From a bacterium (GTDB taxonomy: Bacteria > Zhuqueibacterota > Zhuqueibacteria > Oceanimicrobiales > Oceanimicrobiaceae): a stretch of DNA of 64,000 nucleotides. Where the stretch lies: assembly GCA_037446635.1 (NCBI GenBank), contig JBBIIG010000020.1, positions 1 to 64,000 of the forward strand, in the 5' to 3' direction. Below, piece by piece: positions 9,001-45,000 of the stretch. The stretch's first letter is position 1; the number at the start of each line of letters is the position of its first letter. The position numbers were made by a program.

Positions 9001-12000
9001 AGAGTTGGTGGCGCGCAGCCTGCACGCTCACAGTCTGCGCAAAGCCAAAGCGTTCGTGCCAGTGAATTGCGGCGCGCTGCCGGAGAATCTCTTTGAAAGC
9101 GAGTTGTTTGGCTACGAAAAGGGCGCGTTCACCGGCGCGTTCCGCCGCAAGCCCGGCCTACTGGAGTACGCCGACGGCGGCACCTTCTTCCTCGACGAAA
9201 TTTGCGAGCTCAGCCCCGCCCTGCAGGTGAAGCTGCTGCGGATGCTGCAGGACAAAAAAATCCGGCGCGTGGGCGGCGCCGATCTCATCGATGTCGATGT
9301 GCGCATCATTTCCGCCTCCAATCGCAACCTCGAAGACGCGCTGTCCGCCGGCCAACTGCGCGAAGATTTGTATTACCGCCTGAATGTGATCTCCATCAAG
9401 CTGCCGCCGCTGCGGGATCGCAAGGAAGACATTCCGCTTTTGTGCCACCATTTCATTGAGAAATATTCCAAACTCACGCCCAAAAATATCACGGGCATCT
9501 CCAGCCGCGCCCTCAATTGTCTGGAAGAGTACGACTGGCCCGGCAATGTGCGCGAGTTGGAAAATGTCATCGAACGGGCGGTGACGCTGGCAAAAGAGCA
9601 GGAAATTACGATAGAGGATTTGCCAGAACACCTCGTTCGCGATGGCAACCGGGAGTTAGGCGTCCAATATGAGATGCCGTTTGAAGAAGCGAAGACGCAG
9701 GTGCTGCTGCAATTCGAGCGCAAATATCTCGTCAAACTTTTGGAGCGCAGCAGCGGCAACGTGACCCACGCCGCTGAAATGGGCGGCGTCACCCGCCGCA
9801 CCTTCCATCGTTTACTGCGGAATCACAGCCTGCATGCAAAAGATTGGAAGCCAATCCAGGGCAAAGAAGAAAAAGAAGAATAGGTATGCCAACAATACAC
9901 AAACAACAAAGGAGACGTGTATGTTAAAAAAACTGTGGATTTTGTTTCTGCTTGCGCTGGTGCTGCCGGCGCTGCTTTATTCCCAGAGTTCGGGCAACTT
10001 CTCCACCAGCCTACACGCGACGCGCGCCGGCAAAGCAACGTGGTACAGCAAAGACAACGGCGGATTTGAGACGCTCACCAACATCCCCATGGACTCGCTG
10101 GCGTGCAACAAGTGTCATGGCCCAACCTTCGCCGATGGCACCCCCATCGACAACGAAACCTATGCCCCTGGCTGCAACGACTGCCACAACTTCCCCCAGG
10201 GAACCGCGGTGCAGCAATCCACCTGTTTGGGGTGCCACAGCCGGCAGGCGGCGGAAATTAATTTGTCAGCATCGAATCCCATTTACACCGACGTCCACCG
10301 CGACAAAGGCCTGACCTGCACCAGCTGCCACACCACCCGCGAGATGCATGGCGACGGCACGGCTTACGCCTCCATGAGGGAACCCGGCGTGTTCGACGCC
10401 GCGTGCACCAACTGCCATCCGGAAGCCACCCTGGCCGACAATCAAGCTCATAATCTCCACAAAGATGATGTGTACTGCACCGCCTGCCACACCCAAACCG
10501 TCTCCACCTGCTTGAGCTGCCATTTTGAAAGCGAATTGGATGGTTTCAAGCGCTATTACAATCAAGCGCCCGTGGGCGGCTTTGTGATGCTGGTGCGGCG
10601 CCCGCAGGACGGCAAAGTGGTGACCGCCTCCTATCAATCTTTGACCCACAACGGCAACAGCTTCTACGCCATCGGTATTTTTCACGGGCACACCATCAGT
10701 AAAGAAGCGCGCGCTTGCACCGATTGCCACAATACGGAAATCGTCAACGCCTATAAAACCTCGGACGAAATTCCGGTGGTCCACTGGGACAACAATGACA
10801 GCAAGCTCGTCCATACTCAGGGCGTGATTCCAGTGCCCCCGGATTGGCAGCAGGCTCTGCAATTAGATTTCGCTACCTACACCGGCAACACCACCGATCC
10901 CCTCAAGCCCTTCGACCCGACGAAATGGATTTATCAGGAAACCGGCGCCGACGGCAGCCATATACTCTACGCCGATCCGCTCACCGCGGAACAAATGGAC
11001 AAATTAGCGATGAACGTGGTCTCGGTGGAAGATGGCAGTACTCCTCTGCCGGAGAAATTCGAGCTAGTGCAGAACTACCCCAACCCGTTTAACCCCAGTA
11101 CCAACATCGAATTCCGGCTGGCGAAGACCACGCAGGTAACGCTGAAAATCTACAACCTGCTGGGTGAAGAAATCCAGACCCTGCTTTCGAAAGAAACTCT
11201 GAGCGCGGGGACGCACAAATACAGCTTCCGCGCCGACGGCCTGCCCAGCGGCATTTATGTGTATAAAATAGAAACTCCGGAGTTTACCCAGGTCCGGAAG
11301 ATGACCCTGCTCAGGTAGTATCAAACTGTATCGAAAAATCTGATCAGAGCGTGGATGCTTTCGTCCACGCTCTGTTATTTTAAAACACAGCATTCAAAAA
11401 AATCGCCTACCCTAATTAATTTTTGGAATTGGAAGCGTGCGCTTTAACATCAACCGATTTCTAAAACTCCACATTCGTGGGAAATTAGCCATCGCCTTTG
11501 CCGGGTTATCGATTCTCCCCGTGCTGGTGGTAGGAATTTTAGGAATTTCAAAGAATGTGCAATCGCTGCACCAGGTAGCCATAGAAGACTTAAACCATGA
11601 TCTGCTGGCAATAAAAGAACGACTCCGTAGTTTCTTTCAGGGTTTGGAAGATAATATTCACATTATTACGGCATCCCCTTCATTTCACAATTTTGTTGAC
11701 GCTGTCAATCAACACGATGAATTAAGAATATCGCGTGCAAGCAATGAACTTCTTCCTGAATTAATATCTTTTGCGCAGCACAAAAGAATCTTTTATCAAA
11801 TTAAATTTATTAATTGCGCGGGCGATGAAATCTTCATTATCGAACAAAAGGACGATCAGTACGCAGCCTTACCGACTGAGGAGCTGAATAATTCAGGTAC
11901 GATTTTTTATCTTTATCTTGCACAAAATATTCCGGCCAATCGCGCAACTTTCATTCCGGTGGAACTGATAAGCAGAAATTTTCAGAGGCTGCTGCCAGCG

Positions 12001-42000: not shown

Positions 42001-45000
42001 CGGACACCAACGCCAGCGCCTTTTTGCAGGGCCGCTTTCGAAACGATCCCAACTGTTCGGGCTGTCATACCTTTCAGGGATTTATACAATTTGTTGGCAC
42101 AACCCCGGAAGATACCACCAACATTATCCCAAATGTTGACCCGCCCGGCAACGCTTCCCTGCCGCTGGTGTGCGCCGCCTGCCACGACCCCCACGACGCC
42201 AAGCACGAAGGGCAACTGCGGTTGGAGGTGGTGGATTTGTGTGTGAAATGCCACAATCCCGAGGATGCCGAGCCGCCGGATAACCCGCATCACTCCACTT
42301 CTTCTATGTTTGCCGGGAGCGGCGCGGCCGAAATTCCGGGATTTGATTACACCCGGCAGTCAGCGCACCAAGTTTTGCCGTTGACTCAAGAAAAAAAATG
42401 CGTGGCCTGCCACGTATTCATGACGGAATTCAGCGACAACGGCACGCCAGGCGATCCCTCGGATGATATTCTGGCCAACACCGGGCACACTTTCTTCCCG
42501 CGCATCGAAGCGTGTTCACAAGCAGGTTGCCATGAAACCGGGCTGGATATTCCGCCGGGCTCGCCATTCGAATTTGACCACCGCGGCCGGCGCACTTTTA
42601 CCCAAGGGCTCATCGACAGCCTGGCCGCCATCATTGCCGAGATCGAGCAAAATGTGCTGACGCCGGAAGATTCGCTGGATTACCAGATCGGGCTGTTTAA
42701 CTTGCGGTTCGCTCAGAATGAAGGCAGCATCGGCGTGCACAACCCGGAATATGCCCAGGATATTCTGGAAAGCACCATCGCTTTTCTCGACACCGCCATC
42801 GTCACCTCGGTGGAACCGTTCCCGGATCCCACCGCCGGCCTGCCGCAGCGGTTCGATCTCTATCAAAACTACCCCAACCCGTTCAACCCCAGCACAACTA
42901 TTCGTTTCGACGTGCCGGAACGGGCACACGTGAAATTGGTGGTGTACAACGCCCTCGGCCAGGAAATCGAGACGCTGGTGGATCAGGAGCTGGCGGCCAA
43001 CAGCTACAAAGTCGATTTCAACGCGGCCAGCTTGCCGTCCGGAATTTATTTCTATCGCATTATTGCAGACCAATTTGTGACCACGAAAAAGATGTTGCTT
43101 TTGAAGTGACCATGTTACGTGACGTGCCAGGCACTTGTGACGTGCCTGGCACGGTTACTTTAGACTGAGGAGGAAATTTTGAAAAAGCTTGCTCTTCTTC
43201 TCGTTGCGGTTGCAGCTCTGCCGATGCAGCTTCCCGCGCAATCGCTCAATGCCCGTTTCTCAACTTCGCTCTATTCCTATGAGCGTAACCTGTCGGAAAA
43301 TGCCACCACGAGTTACTTGCGCCTCTATCAAACCGCGCAGTTCACCGTCGGGCAACTGGCCAACAACCGGCTTTCGTTTCACTTCTTCGGGCAAATCTCG
43401 CAGGATTTGTCCGAAAAAGCCGATGACGATCCCATTCCGCGGCTGTACAACGCCTACTTGCAATGGCAGGAACGCAATGCTATTGTGAACCAGGTGAAGC
43501 TCGGGCGGCAGCGCGTTTACTCCGGCGTAGCTTATGGCGCCATCGATGGCGTCGACGTCACCGTGCGCGCCGGCAATTATTTCAAGATTGGCGGGTTTGC
43601 GGGTTTCCTCGTGCCCACCTCCAACGAAATTGAAATCGACAGTTGGGACGCCAGCCACACCTTTGGACTGCGCGCCAGCACGGACCGACTTTTAGGTTCG
43701 AAAATCCTGATCAGCTTCATGCAAAGAAACCGCCAGCCGGTGAACTACACCGAGCCCGGACAATTCACCCAAAAAATTTTAACTTTTGAAAGCCTGGAGC
43801 AGCGCCTGGTGGGAGTGGATATTTACCGCAGCTTCTCCCGGCGGCTGAATGTTTACGGCCGCTTCGACTACGATCTCGAGCACGATCGCGTGCGGCGCAC
43901 GCAGGTGGAGCTGCGCGTCTCGCCATCTCAGAAATTAGAACTCGCCGGCGAGTTCTTCCACCGCGCCCCGCTGATTGAGGCCAACTCCATTTTCACGGTG
44001 TTCGAGCAGGGCACATCGCAGGACGTGGGGCTGCGCGCCAATTATCGCATCCATCAAACCTGGTTTCTCGACGGCAATTTCGGCTATCAAATTTACGACG
44101 GCGATGAGTCCGTCCGTTTTGGATTGGGGCTGCGCTGCAAGTACGGCTACTTCGGTTACAACTTCCGCCGCGGCTACGGCGGCCAAAACAACGGCGCGTA
44201 CGCCGCATTCAATTATCAGCTCAACTCAAAATTTGGAGTGGTGGCCAGCACCGGCCTTTCGCGTTACAGCCTCTTTAATGAAGACACTGACGAGTACACT
44301 TCCATCACCGGCAGCCTCGGCGTGAATTACCGGCCGCACAAACTTTTTTCCGTCGATGCGCTGGGGCAGGGCGTACGCAACCGGTTTTTCAACAACGATT
44401 TTCGATTTTTTGTAAAAGCGAATTACTGGTTCTTCACGACGAGAGGCGCTGGAGGGCAGTGATGGAGTTTGAAGTGATGGATTACTGGATCAATGTAACT
44501 CAAAGCTCCGCTTTGAGAGGCGCAAACCAGAAGCTTGCGTACGAATCTCCACCACTCCAACAGCCCATTGATCCAATAATCCATTAATCCACTTTCGTCT
44601 ATGAACTAAACTTCGAGCTTAGTAAGTACCTGAAACGTCAGAAATTTTTTGGAATACATTATCATTTGCGCCGCTGCGCTCATCACCTCCGGGTTGACGC
44701 TTTTCTCCGGATTCGGATTGGGCACGCTGTTGTTGCCGGTGTTTGCCATTTTCTTCCCAGTGGAGGCGGCCGTGGCCATGACCGCGCTGGTGCACTTGTT
44801 CAACAATATTTTTAAGCTGACGATTTACGGCAAACATTGCGAACGGGTGGTCTTGCTGCGATTTGCGCTGCCCGCCATCGCGGCGGCCTTTGGCGGCGCA
44901 TACATTCTGACATGGGTCTCGAATTTTGAACCCCTTGCGATGTACGAAATTGGTTCGCGGGTCTTTGAAATTTTACCGGTCAAAATGTTGATCGCCATGC

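Follow-up and report, generated by a model that had tools for sequence, protein, structure and literature searches.

RESULTS

A cluster of multihaem cytochrome genes combines T9SS tails with a porin-cytochrome conduit

The stretch of DNA analyzed here (64,000 nt, referred to below as the window) holds a redox gene cluster in which four multihaem cytochromes bearing type IX secretion system (T9SS) sorting tails are encoded next to a Pcc-type porin-cytochrome conduit. The reading that we favor, with somewhat better than even confidence, is that a quinol oxidase passes electrons to the conduit and from there to T9SS-exported outer cytochromes, which would reduce extracellular acceptors. A preceding genome survey had, as its boldest reading, placed such cytochromes on the surface as terminal oxidoreductases. 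Export by T9SS remains the best reading, but we found no support for the survey's suggestion of T9SS as a substitute for a porin-cytochrome conduit, since the Pcc-type conduit lies in the same cluster.

The cluster runs from 1906 to 55535, with 39 genes and 105 CXXCH motifs in total, and is larger than the 45-kb island first described (Table 1). At 52.6%, its G+C content is close to the 52.5% of the whole genome, and no tRNA was found in the window, so its composition carries no sign of a transferred island. The three Rieske/cytochrome b modules, the NrfD-cytochrome c7 fusion, the two HAO-like octahaems, the 14-haem gene and the Cytochrom_NNT (NapC/NirT-domain, PF03264) gene, which the survey labeled ImcH-like, were all found again.

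Table 1. Features of the cluster and their positions in the window
Feature	Position	Strand	Basis
HybA/HmcB-like Fe-S protein and NrfD-cytochrome c7 fusion; candidate quinol-coupled module	5860..8353	+	Domain matches
g01989, octahaem cytochrome c, 465 aa, 8 CXXCH, tail from ~11025	9921..11318	+	
Cyc2-like ORF, monohaem cytochrome joined to a probable porin; side member	15555..16823	+	Motif comparison with Keffer 2021
Module of probable copper protein, flavin/Fe-S oxidoreductase, Rieske, split cytochrome b, octahaem and monohaem cytochromes	16866..24912	+	Domain matches
g02001, nonahaem OcwA-like cytochrome, FN3-like domain, 918 aa, 9 CXXCH, tail from ~27704	25238..27994	+	
g02003, heptahaem cytochrome (OcwA-like stretch) with EB_dh, 1002 aa, 7 CXXCH, tail from ~31577	28859..31867	+	
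HAO-like octahaem	32053..33300	+	Domain match
Lipoprotein cytochrome, 6 CXXCH and one CX4CH, lipobox; outer cytochrome of Pcc-type cluster	33304..34167	+	TIGR01904
Periplasmic tetrahaem, c554-like, regular cluster member	34203..34772	+	
Rieske and cytochrome b, module 2	34939..36496	+	Domain match
Nonahaem cytochrome, membrane-anchored at the C-terminus; follows the Rieske/cytochrome b pair	36559..37854	+	
Membrane multihaem with NapC/NirT domain, candidate quinol oxidase, start codon uncertain	39783..41309	+	PF03264
g02012, octahaem cytochrome, OcwA/OmhA fold, 544 aa, 8 CXXCH, tail from ~42810	41475..43109	+	
Unannotated plug-less 22-strand outer-membrane beta-barrel; porin of Pcc-type conduit	43179..44462	+	Model, fold matches, neighborhood
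TauE/SafE gene, between barrel and 14-haem gene in this genome	44649..45422	+	
14-haem cytochrome, 409 aa, 14 CXXCH, constant porin neighbor, matches the description of IALB_1838	45693..46922	+	
Rieske/cytochrome b module 3, HAO-like octahaem, NapA, NapB-like tetrahaem	47208..55535	+	NCBIfam/Pfam matches

The sorting tails are conserved and alternate with other anchors

The ORFs of the four cytochromes (8, 9, 7 and 8 CXXCH) are intact, and our searches reproduced their T9SS type-A tails as reported, with TIGR04183 scores of 40.1 (g01989), 45.4 (g02001), 41.9 (g02003) and 43.7 bits (g02012) against a cut-off of 23, PF18962 at 840-916/918 (g02001), 924-998/1002 (g02003) and 466-540/544 (g02012), and EB_dh at 596-890 of g02003. 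The tails stand at the very end of all four proteins and rank 19th (g01989), 1st (g02001), 8th (g02003) and 7th (g02012) among 115 tail matches genome-wide; among the 34 ORFs of the genome with at least two CXXCH, only these four join at least three CXXCH to a tail. Reading of the sequences together with a hydropathy rule gives each an N-terminal Sec signal peptide, which in g01989 ends just before Gln, and no lipobox. In the g02012 model the tail forms a separate Ig-like beta-sandwich (pLDDT >82 within the tail) that matches the mirolase CTD (Z 9.3, rmsd 2.2, 77 aligned), as well as the CTD of PorU and the substrate NucA in complex with SprA.

Tail identity equals or exceeds that of the haem domain, both in 30 close relatives (65.7% versus 64.3%) and in 86 distant ones (49.6% versus 43.0%), and the tail is the very C-terminus in 120/120 full-length matches. 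It is retained in four different cytochrome families and several phyla. This conservation largely refutes the idea of functionless tails left behind by domain shuffling, which we regard as very improbable, even though the four tails rank only 67 to 86 of 100 against a profile of the 96 other tails in the genome, the others being scored in-sample.

A search with the haem domain of g02012 alone returned 120 relatives, of which 87 carry a tail, in every case without a lipobox, while 31 of the 33 tailless ones are lipoproteins; 21 of the 31 have at least two acidic residues at +2 to +6, resembling the Bacteroidetes surface signal. A quick tree reduces this anchor swap to just two or three independent events. 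Among g01989 relatives, tail, lipobox and JDVT-CTERM occur as alternatives (8 of 10 CTERM-like tails exceed the JDVT-CTERM cut-off), and no anchor was found in 34 of the 74 without a tail. In the two sets together, 0/133 tailed relatives (87 plus 46) also have a lipobox. Thus a tail that is conserved like the haem domain and alternates with lipid or CTERM anchors, in proteins whose nearest solved structures are surface reductases, strengthens the case for T9SS-type export.

The probable export route and the fold of g02012

SprA, PorU and PorV paralogues are present as the survey stated, the last with nine PorV-family matches, and SprA occurs in 41/41 genomes examined. Haem attachment genes of both the CcmF and the CcsA type are encoded. 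GldL, GldM and GldN gave no match above cut-off in this 97% complete genome, for which divergent homologues are a possible reason, and GldM was found in 0/81 genomes of the phylum by a search that gave no positive control match. A review passage puts the SprA pore at about 7 nm, ample for folded proteins, and polysaccharide-degrading enzymes of Melioribacter are described with the same type of tail.

The MtrC/MtrF-type domain ascribed to g02012 does exist as a Pfam match, but it is a haem-motif match, and the model fits OcwA (Z 21.4, rmsd 3.4, 333 aligned) and OmhA (Z 20.5, rmsd 3.3, 340 aligned) best, at 22 to 24% identity across the structural alignment, ahead of NrfA/ONR (Z 14 to 15.6). Whether the fold is a four-domain one as in MtrC was judged from these same matches, with OcwA and OmhA at the top. 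An MtrC/MtrF/OmcA decahaem lipoprotein was ruled out, g02012 having 8 CXXCH and no lipobox. By sequence comparison OcwA is the top match of g02001 and g02003 too, and no relative of solved structure was found for g01989 by sequence. The modeled fold of g02012 is therefore NrfA/ONR-related and nearest to OcwA/OmhA; a surface reductase of that type would reduce solid acceptors at the cell surface. OcwA and OmhA are described as cell-surface multihaem reductases, and OcwA itself also reduces oxyanions; the fold is common to nitrite and sulfite reductases that act on soluble substrates.

The NrfA/ONR fold matches, the missing GldL/M/N, the NapA and HAO-like genes of the cluster and the 34 anchorless g01989 relatives would suit cytochromes that remain periplasmic or sit on the inner side of the outer membrane and reduce soluble oxyanions or N-oxides, with the tail as a tether or folding module. 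We consider this unlikely, because 115 tail matches together with SprA, PorU and PorV suggest a functioning export route, the Melioribacter enzymes share the tail, tail and lipobox exclude each other in all 133 tailed relatives, and the nearest solved structures belong to surface proteins.

A Pcc-type conduit accompanies the tailed cytochromes

The survey had seen no annotated porin-cytochrome gene. The porin is indeed unannotated, with no Pfam or NCBIfam match, but the implied absence of a conduit was wrong: besides the Cyc2-like gene at 15555 to 16823, there is, 70 bp after g02012, an ORF whose model (pLDDT 96.5) is a beta-barrel of 22 strands spanning residues 2 to 401. The lipoprotein cytochrome upstream scores 47.7 bits with TIGR01904 (cut-off 27). 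We compared 80 loci of the 14-haem gene, kept of 396, a set that leaves the IALB genome outside. Of these, 78 also have the barrel, 68 a relative of the lipoprotein cytochrome, the presumed cap, and 19 a tailed multihaem cytochrome. The barrel and 14-haem genes are at most 500 bp apart in 75/78 other loci, while here one gene is inserted.

Seen from the other side, the barrel is present in 22 of the 25 relatives in which one of the four tailed families was matched, and tailed cytochromes repeatedly stand directly upstream of it; the order NapC/NirT-domain multihaem, g02012, barrel is kept in six loci of five relative genomes. Two relatives with tailed cytochromes, G001 (74% complete) and G018 (95%), gave no barrel match. 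The conduit is the likely electron source of the tailed cytochromes, and it can do without them, because 61/80 loci have none within the examined flanks while the lipoprotein cap is so frequent.

The scarcity of tailed cytochromes near most conduits, the case of G018, the extra EB_dh domain on g02003 and the weak binding described for OmhA, which is readily sheared off the cell, could also mean that the cytochromes are released or bound in the biofilm matrix after export and serve as diffusible carriers or detoxifying redox enzymes away from the conduit. We give this little credence, since relatives have lipid or membrane anchors, PorU is intact and the genes recur immediately before the barrel.

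Direction of electron flow and the proposed pathway

The genes at 47208 to 55535 form a probable periplasmic nitrate/nitrite branch, to which a pathway outlined for Caldithrix in PMC5317091 is comparable. The ORF at 15555 to 16823 resembles Cyc2, whose motif consists of AXPXFAR[Q/K][T/Y] upstream of a single CXXCH, PXL downstream and a length >365 aa (Keffer et al. 2021, PMC8406198); all these elements are found, W for F being the sole deviation. In its atlas neighbor cluster, porin O/P is assigned to 12% of members. The first Rieske module includes a probable copper protein with a putative copper site.

Together with NapA and the three Rieske/cytochrome b modules, these two genes would fit inward flow, in which Fe(II) minerals, cathodes or partner cells would supply the surface cytochromes with electrons for nitrate reduction. 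This seems rather improbable to us, given that OcwA and OmhA are reductases, that distant relatives of Cyc2 are described as uncertain in function, and that the motif deviates at one position.

In the outward chain that we prefer, the NapC/NirT-domain multihaem, the NrfD fusion and the Rieske/cytochrome b pairs would oxidize quinol and hand electrons to periplasmic cytochromes. Their passage across the outer membrane would fall to the 14-haem cytochrome, lodged in the 22-strand barrel and with the lipoprotein cytochrome as cap. The four tailed cytochromes would cross the inner membrane by Sec, be loaded with haem and fold in the periplasm, and pass the SprA translocon by means of their tails, which PorU would cut while attaching the proteins to the surface. 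There they may receive electrons from the conduit and act as interchangeable accessory terminal reductases of minerals, humics, electrodes or partner cells. Several points count against this reading: GldL/M/N were not found, the anchor swap comes down to so few events, and 34/74 g01989 relatives lack an anchor. Further points are the fold shared with soluble-substrate reductases, the two relatives without a barrel, and the absence of growth of Ignavibacterium album on Fe(III) or Mn(IV) oxides despite such a Pcc cluster.

DISCUSSION

On the outer surface of Gram-negative bacteria, most known cytochromes are lipoproteins or depend on type II-like secretion. We see about an even chance that in KSB1, Calditrichota, Ignavibacteria, Latescibacterota and related lineages a T9SS without GldLMN exports folded, covalently haem-loaded cytochromes as a swappable surface layer of the conduit. 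If so, extracellular electron-transfer proteins would have an export route not known before, and T9SS would be energized in an unknown way. Such a route would place proteins carrying many covalent cofactors among T9SS cargo and, by sortase anchoring, bring widespread, mostly uncultured FCB-related lineages into mineral or electrode respiration. In the literature searched, we found no description of a link between T9SS and multihaem cytochromes, nor of T9SS cargo with seven to nine covalent haems. The window is useful in that quinol oxidation, conduit and four cargo families lie within one cluster, and a CXXCH run, TIGR04183 and the unannotated barrel described here make a simple genomic marker.

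Compared with known systems, the tailed cytochromes share a signal peptide and a C-terminal beta-sandwich tail with Bacteroidota T9SS type-A cargo (gingipains, mirolase and NucA), whereas GldL/M/N of the Bacteroidota motor were not found here. OcwA (Thermincola potens, PDB 6I5B) and OmhA (Carboxydothermus ferrireducens, 6QVM) are the best sequence and fold matches of g02012, but unlike the present bacterium their hosts are Gram-positive and lack an outer membrane. Cyc2 has a 16-strand porin behind its haem domain; in the Cyc2-like ORF a porin part is suggested by the atlas neighbor cluster.

In Shewanella, MtrCAB with OmcA/UndA likewise pairs a conduit with accessory outer cytochromes. MtrC and OmcA are lipoproteins exported via type II secretion, and the Shewanella outer cytochromes differ in fold from those found here. 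The barrel aligns with MtrB (Z 16.3, rmsd 4.5, 343 aligned), but it is the smaller of the two, with 407 residues against 649, and its fit to TonB-receptor barrels is better. The closest counterpart by description is the I. album Pcc cluster IALB_1837-1840, with a porin, a 400-aa 14-haem periplasmic cytochrome, one more cytochrome in the periplasm and an outer one whose haem motif is atypical (Shi et al. 2014, PMC4245776), a paper in which the word "secretion" is absent. Loci titled Ignavibacterium sp. have the order tetrahaem, barrel, 14-haem, lipoprotein. Compared with I. album, the four Pcc genes are rearranged in our cluster, and four T9SS-tailed cytochromes are added to them.

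Cluster organization and composition

The genome (4.64 Mb, completeness 97%) is regarded here as KSB1-like, because the nearest named relatives of the window's proteins carry the label candidate division KSB1. The cluster comprises 39 genes with 105 CXXCH motifs, at least three of them in each of 14 genes. Because its G+C content equals the genome average and tRNA genes are absent, it bears no compositional sign of transfer, and a transferred island was rejected as an explanation. In its layout the Cyc2-like module is reminiscent of those anammox Rieske/cytochrome b complexes that include an NAD(P)-binding subunit. 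The final third of the cluster, with Rieske/cytochrome b, an HAO-like octahaem and NapA, has the look of a distinct nitrate branch in the periplasm, resembling that of Caldithrix (PMC5317091, extract). Three sigma-54-like sites lie in intergenic DNA versus 0.06 in shuffles, with a pattern composed after the sites were seen; two sigma-54 activators are encoded within the cluster. The ATCCATT/TGGAT elements may belong to a small mobile repeat or to one of REP type.

Features discussed in the text (window positions, unless a contig is named)
Feature	Position	Strand	Remarks
Cluster	1906-55535	+	
g01989	9921-11318	+	8 CXXCH; TIGR04183 score 40.1, rank 19
g02001	25238-27994	+	9 CXXCH; score 45.4, rank 1
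g02003	28859-31867	+	7 CXXCH; score 41.9, rank 8
g02012	41475-43109	+	8 CXXCH; score 43.7, rank 7
Lipoprotein cap cytochrome	33304-34167		
NapC/NirT-domain gene	39783-41309		
Barrel ORF	43179-44462		unannotated
14-haem gene	45693-46922		
Cyc2-like module	15555-24912		monohaem-porin gene first, then probable copper protein, flavin/Fe-S oxidoreductase, Rieske, split cytochrome b, octahaem
Sigma-54-like -24/-12 sites	1858, 25152, 28406	+	upstream of first kinase operon, g02001 and g02003 operon
Two fusions of a response-regulator receiver domain with a glycine-cleavage H-protein-like domain	3477-5633		upstream of Fe-S/NrfD pair
Short ATCCATT/TGGAT-rich repeats	44462-49448, intergenic		common core near 44500, 45500, 49310; flank inserted TauE gene
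Second PorU-like ORF	G000:C14:75439-80445	-	1729 aa, longer than PorU
371-aa tailed protein	G000:C23:20523-21638	+	Tat-like signal, Cys-rich middle, two CXXCH, T9SS-type tail

Four intact multihaem cytochromes carry conserved sorting tails

The four multihaem cytochromes that the survey had assigned to type IX secretion (T9SS) are real: all the genes are intact, and their C-terminal tails rank among 115 matches to the type-A sorting domain (TIGR04183) genome-wide. In g02012 the tail is as conserved as the haem domain among 30 close relatives (65.7% versus 64.3% identity) and more so among 86 distant ones (49.6% versus 43.0%), and it ends within 5 residues of the C-terminus in 120/120 best full-length relatives, a search in which the full-length query favoured tailed matches. 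The g02012 model (pLDDT 92.3) folds the tail into a separate beta-sandwich, like solved T9SS tails. The tail is not a relic; we rejected a leftover domain because its conservation matches or exceeds that of the haem domain and its position is kept in relatives. A cleavage-like motif precedes all four cytochrome tails, which is weak evidence because it stands ahead of just 34 of 100 tails in the genome against a background of 9.8%.

The genome encodes SprA (an open frame of 2071 aa, also present in 41/41 genomes searched), PorU (866 bits versus a cut-off of 420), nine PorV-family matches, and CcmF- and CcsA-type haem attachment genes. The second PorU-like ORF scores under the sortase cut-off. 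Given intact conserved tails, this machinery and the modeled CTD fold, sequence and model are best read as pointing to export by a T9SS-type route, as the survey had proposed. The tailed proteins would enter the periplasm through Sec, take up haem, fold and pass through SprA, whose pore of about 7 nm is described as large enough to admit folded proteins (review, PMC12398890, extract); PorU would then cleave and anchor them, by analogy with Bacteroidota. Their mature holo-masses are calculated at ~43-100 kDa. However, GldM, GldN and GldL found no match in the genome, which speaks against export, and GldM was absent from 81 genomes of the phylum in a search where no positive control matched.

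The 371-aa tailed protein on another contig presumably resembles split-Soret cytochrome c, and its sequence would make it a T9SS cargo that carries a cofactor and takes the Tat route. The EB_dh domain of g02003 retains Met 621 as well as a Lys close to position 701, both within putative haem b ligand motifs.

Tails alternate with membrane anchors among relatives

When the haem domain of g02012 alone served as the query, a tail was found in 87 of the best 120 of 999 matches, none of the 87 having a lipobox; the 33 tail-less proteins comprised 31 lipoproteins, one apparently truncated sequence and one with a different C-terminal extension. The lipobox rule was a stricter version, tuned on the sequences behind 11 false positives of the first regex, which were tailed proteins. 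At least two acidic residues follow the lipobox Cys in 21 of the 31 lipoproteins, and such residues are a Bacteroidetes surface-export signal (PMC5080379, extract). Swaps between tail and lipobox were few: three label changes suffice in a quick tree whose 86 rows remained after close tailed clades had been thinned, and well-supported branches force two to three of them. Among g01989 relatives (best 120 of 415), 46 carry a tail, 30 are lipoproteins, 10 have a CTERM-like tail (8 passing the JDVT-CTERM cut-off) and 34 show no evident anchor. This alternation supports an envelope-anchored location for the predicted products, although the 34 anchorless relatives weaken it. One lipoprotein relative of g01989 (P0415), 47% identical to it, is assigned by name to an archaeon, the Fe(III) reducer Geoglobus ahangari.

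A predicted porin-cytochrome conduit lies beside g02012

The survey had seen no porin-cytochrome gene annotated in the cluster; the absence of a conduit that this implied was rejected in view of the barrel ORF and its porin-cytochrome (Pcc)-type partner genes. Pfam and NCBIfam searches of this ORF gave no match; its model, built on an alignment of 129 sequences, has 22 strands and lacks a plug (pLDDT 96.5), with TonB-dependent receptor barrels as best fold matches (Z about 20) and MtrB at 16.3. With the 14-haem protein as query, 396 stretches were found and 80 kept: the barrel occurs in 78 of these 80 loci (≤500 bp upstream in 75) and a lipoprotein cytochrome in 68. On sequence and model, this conduit would feed the tailed cytochromes. 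Against such a partnership, the conduit already owns a lipoprotein cap, and most loci have no tailed neighbour: a tailed multihaem, counted within the flanks available, occurs in 19 of the 80, and the titles of those 19 include KSB1, Calditrichota, Latescibacterota, Gemmatimonas, Ignavibacteriales and Melioribacteraceae. Six loci, drawn from five relative genomes, conserve the order NapC/NirT-domain gene, g02012, barrel; in other loci a tailed protein like g02003 or g02001, or else a lipoprotein multihaem, occupies the slot upstream of the barrel.

Across 40 relatives, 25 match at least one of the four tailed families (two through tail-less proteins) and 22 of these 25 have the barrel; four have the barrel alone and 11 neither. 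No statistic is given on this co-occurrence, because the 40 are related to one another and some of them may also be represented among the 80 loci. In some KSB1-related loci (L076, L079, L085) the cap cytochrome has grown to about 1088 aa and carries 21 haems. Another locus (L092), titled Planctomycetota, joins a barrel cluster with a tailed nonahaem; either the record was misbinned or T9SS tails extend beyond FCB.

Proposed electron flow and comparison with known systems

Quinol oxidation would fall to the NapC/NirT-domain multihaem, to the NrfD fusion or to one of the Rieske/cytochrome b pairs, whose domains are observed; from fold and gene order, electrons may then pass over periplasmic cytochromes to the 14-haem protein inside the barrel and from it to the lipoprotein cap, and tailed cytochromes at the surface would broaden the acceptor range. 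Ignavibacterium album, itself a Pcc carrier, used neither Fe(III) nor Mn(IV) oxides (PMC4245776, extract), which counts against this reading. Electrons may instead flow inward, as the Cyc2-like gene in the cluster (motif from PMC8406198, extract) would allow. Ignavibacteria Pcc clusters have been reported from anode biofilms as well (PMC7399161, extract).

The tailed cytochromes resemble surface reductases, by model for g02012 and by sequence for g02001 and g02003. The g02012 haem domain aligns with OcwA of Thermincola potens (Z 21.4, rmsd 3.4, 333 aligned) and OmhA of Carboxydothermus ferrireducens (Z 20.5, rmsd 3.3, 340 aligned), ahead of NrfA and octahaem nitrite reductases (Z ≤15.6). The MtrC-type domain that g02012 had been credited with was rejected: MtrC, MtrF and OmcA are absent among the fold matches listed, which does not by itself exclude them. 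g02001 and g02003 matched OcwA in sequence; the same search gave no match for g01989. Extracts present OcwA as a terminal reductase of the cell surface, with shuttles and oxyanions among its further substrates (PMC6703420), and OmhA as the sole cytochrome sheared from cells and washed off magnetite (PMC7829351).

In the literature searched, with subscription papers outside its scope, we found no description of T9SS paired with multihaem or c-type cytochromes or extracellular electron transfer. T9SS terms are absent from the supplements of PMC7399161, PMC6137239 and PMC7829351, text searches of PMC5492636, PMC11475568 and PMC7323717 brought up no passage, and in its extract the Melioribacter genome paper speaks of the tail for carbohydrate enzymes alone (PMC3534657). 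In public databases the label 'T9SS type A sorting domain-containing' is already attached to proteins of this kind. It is the combination that appears undescribed, while the OcwA fold, the T9SS tail and the Pcc conduit are each already known. Compared by description, loci titled Ignavibacterium, which run tetrahaem, barrel, 400-aa 14-haem, lipoprotein, agree in gene order with Pcc cluster IALB_1840-1837 of I. album (Shi et al., PMC4245776, extract).
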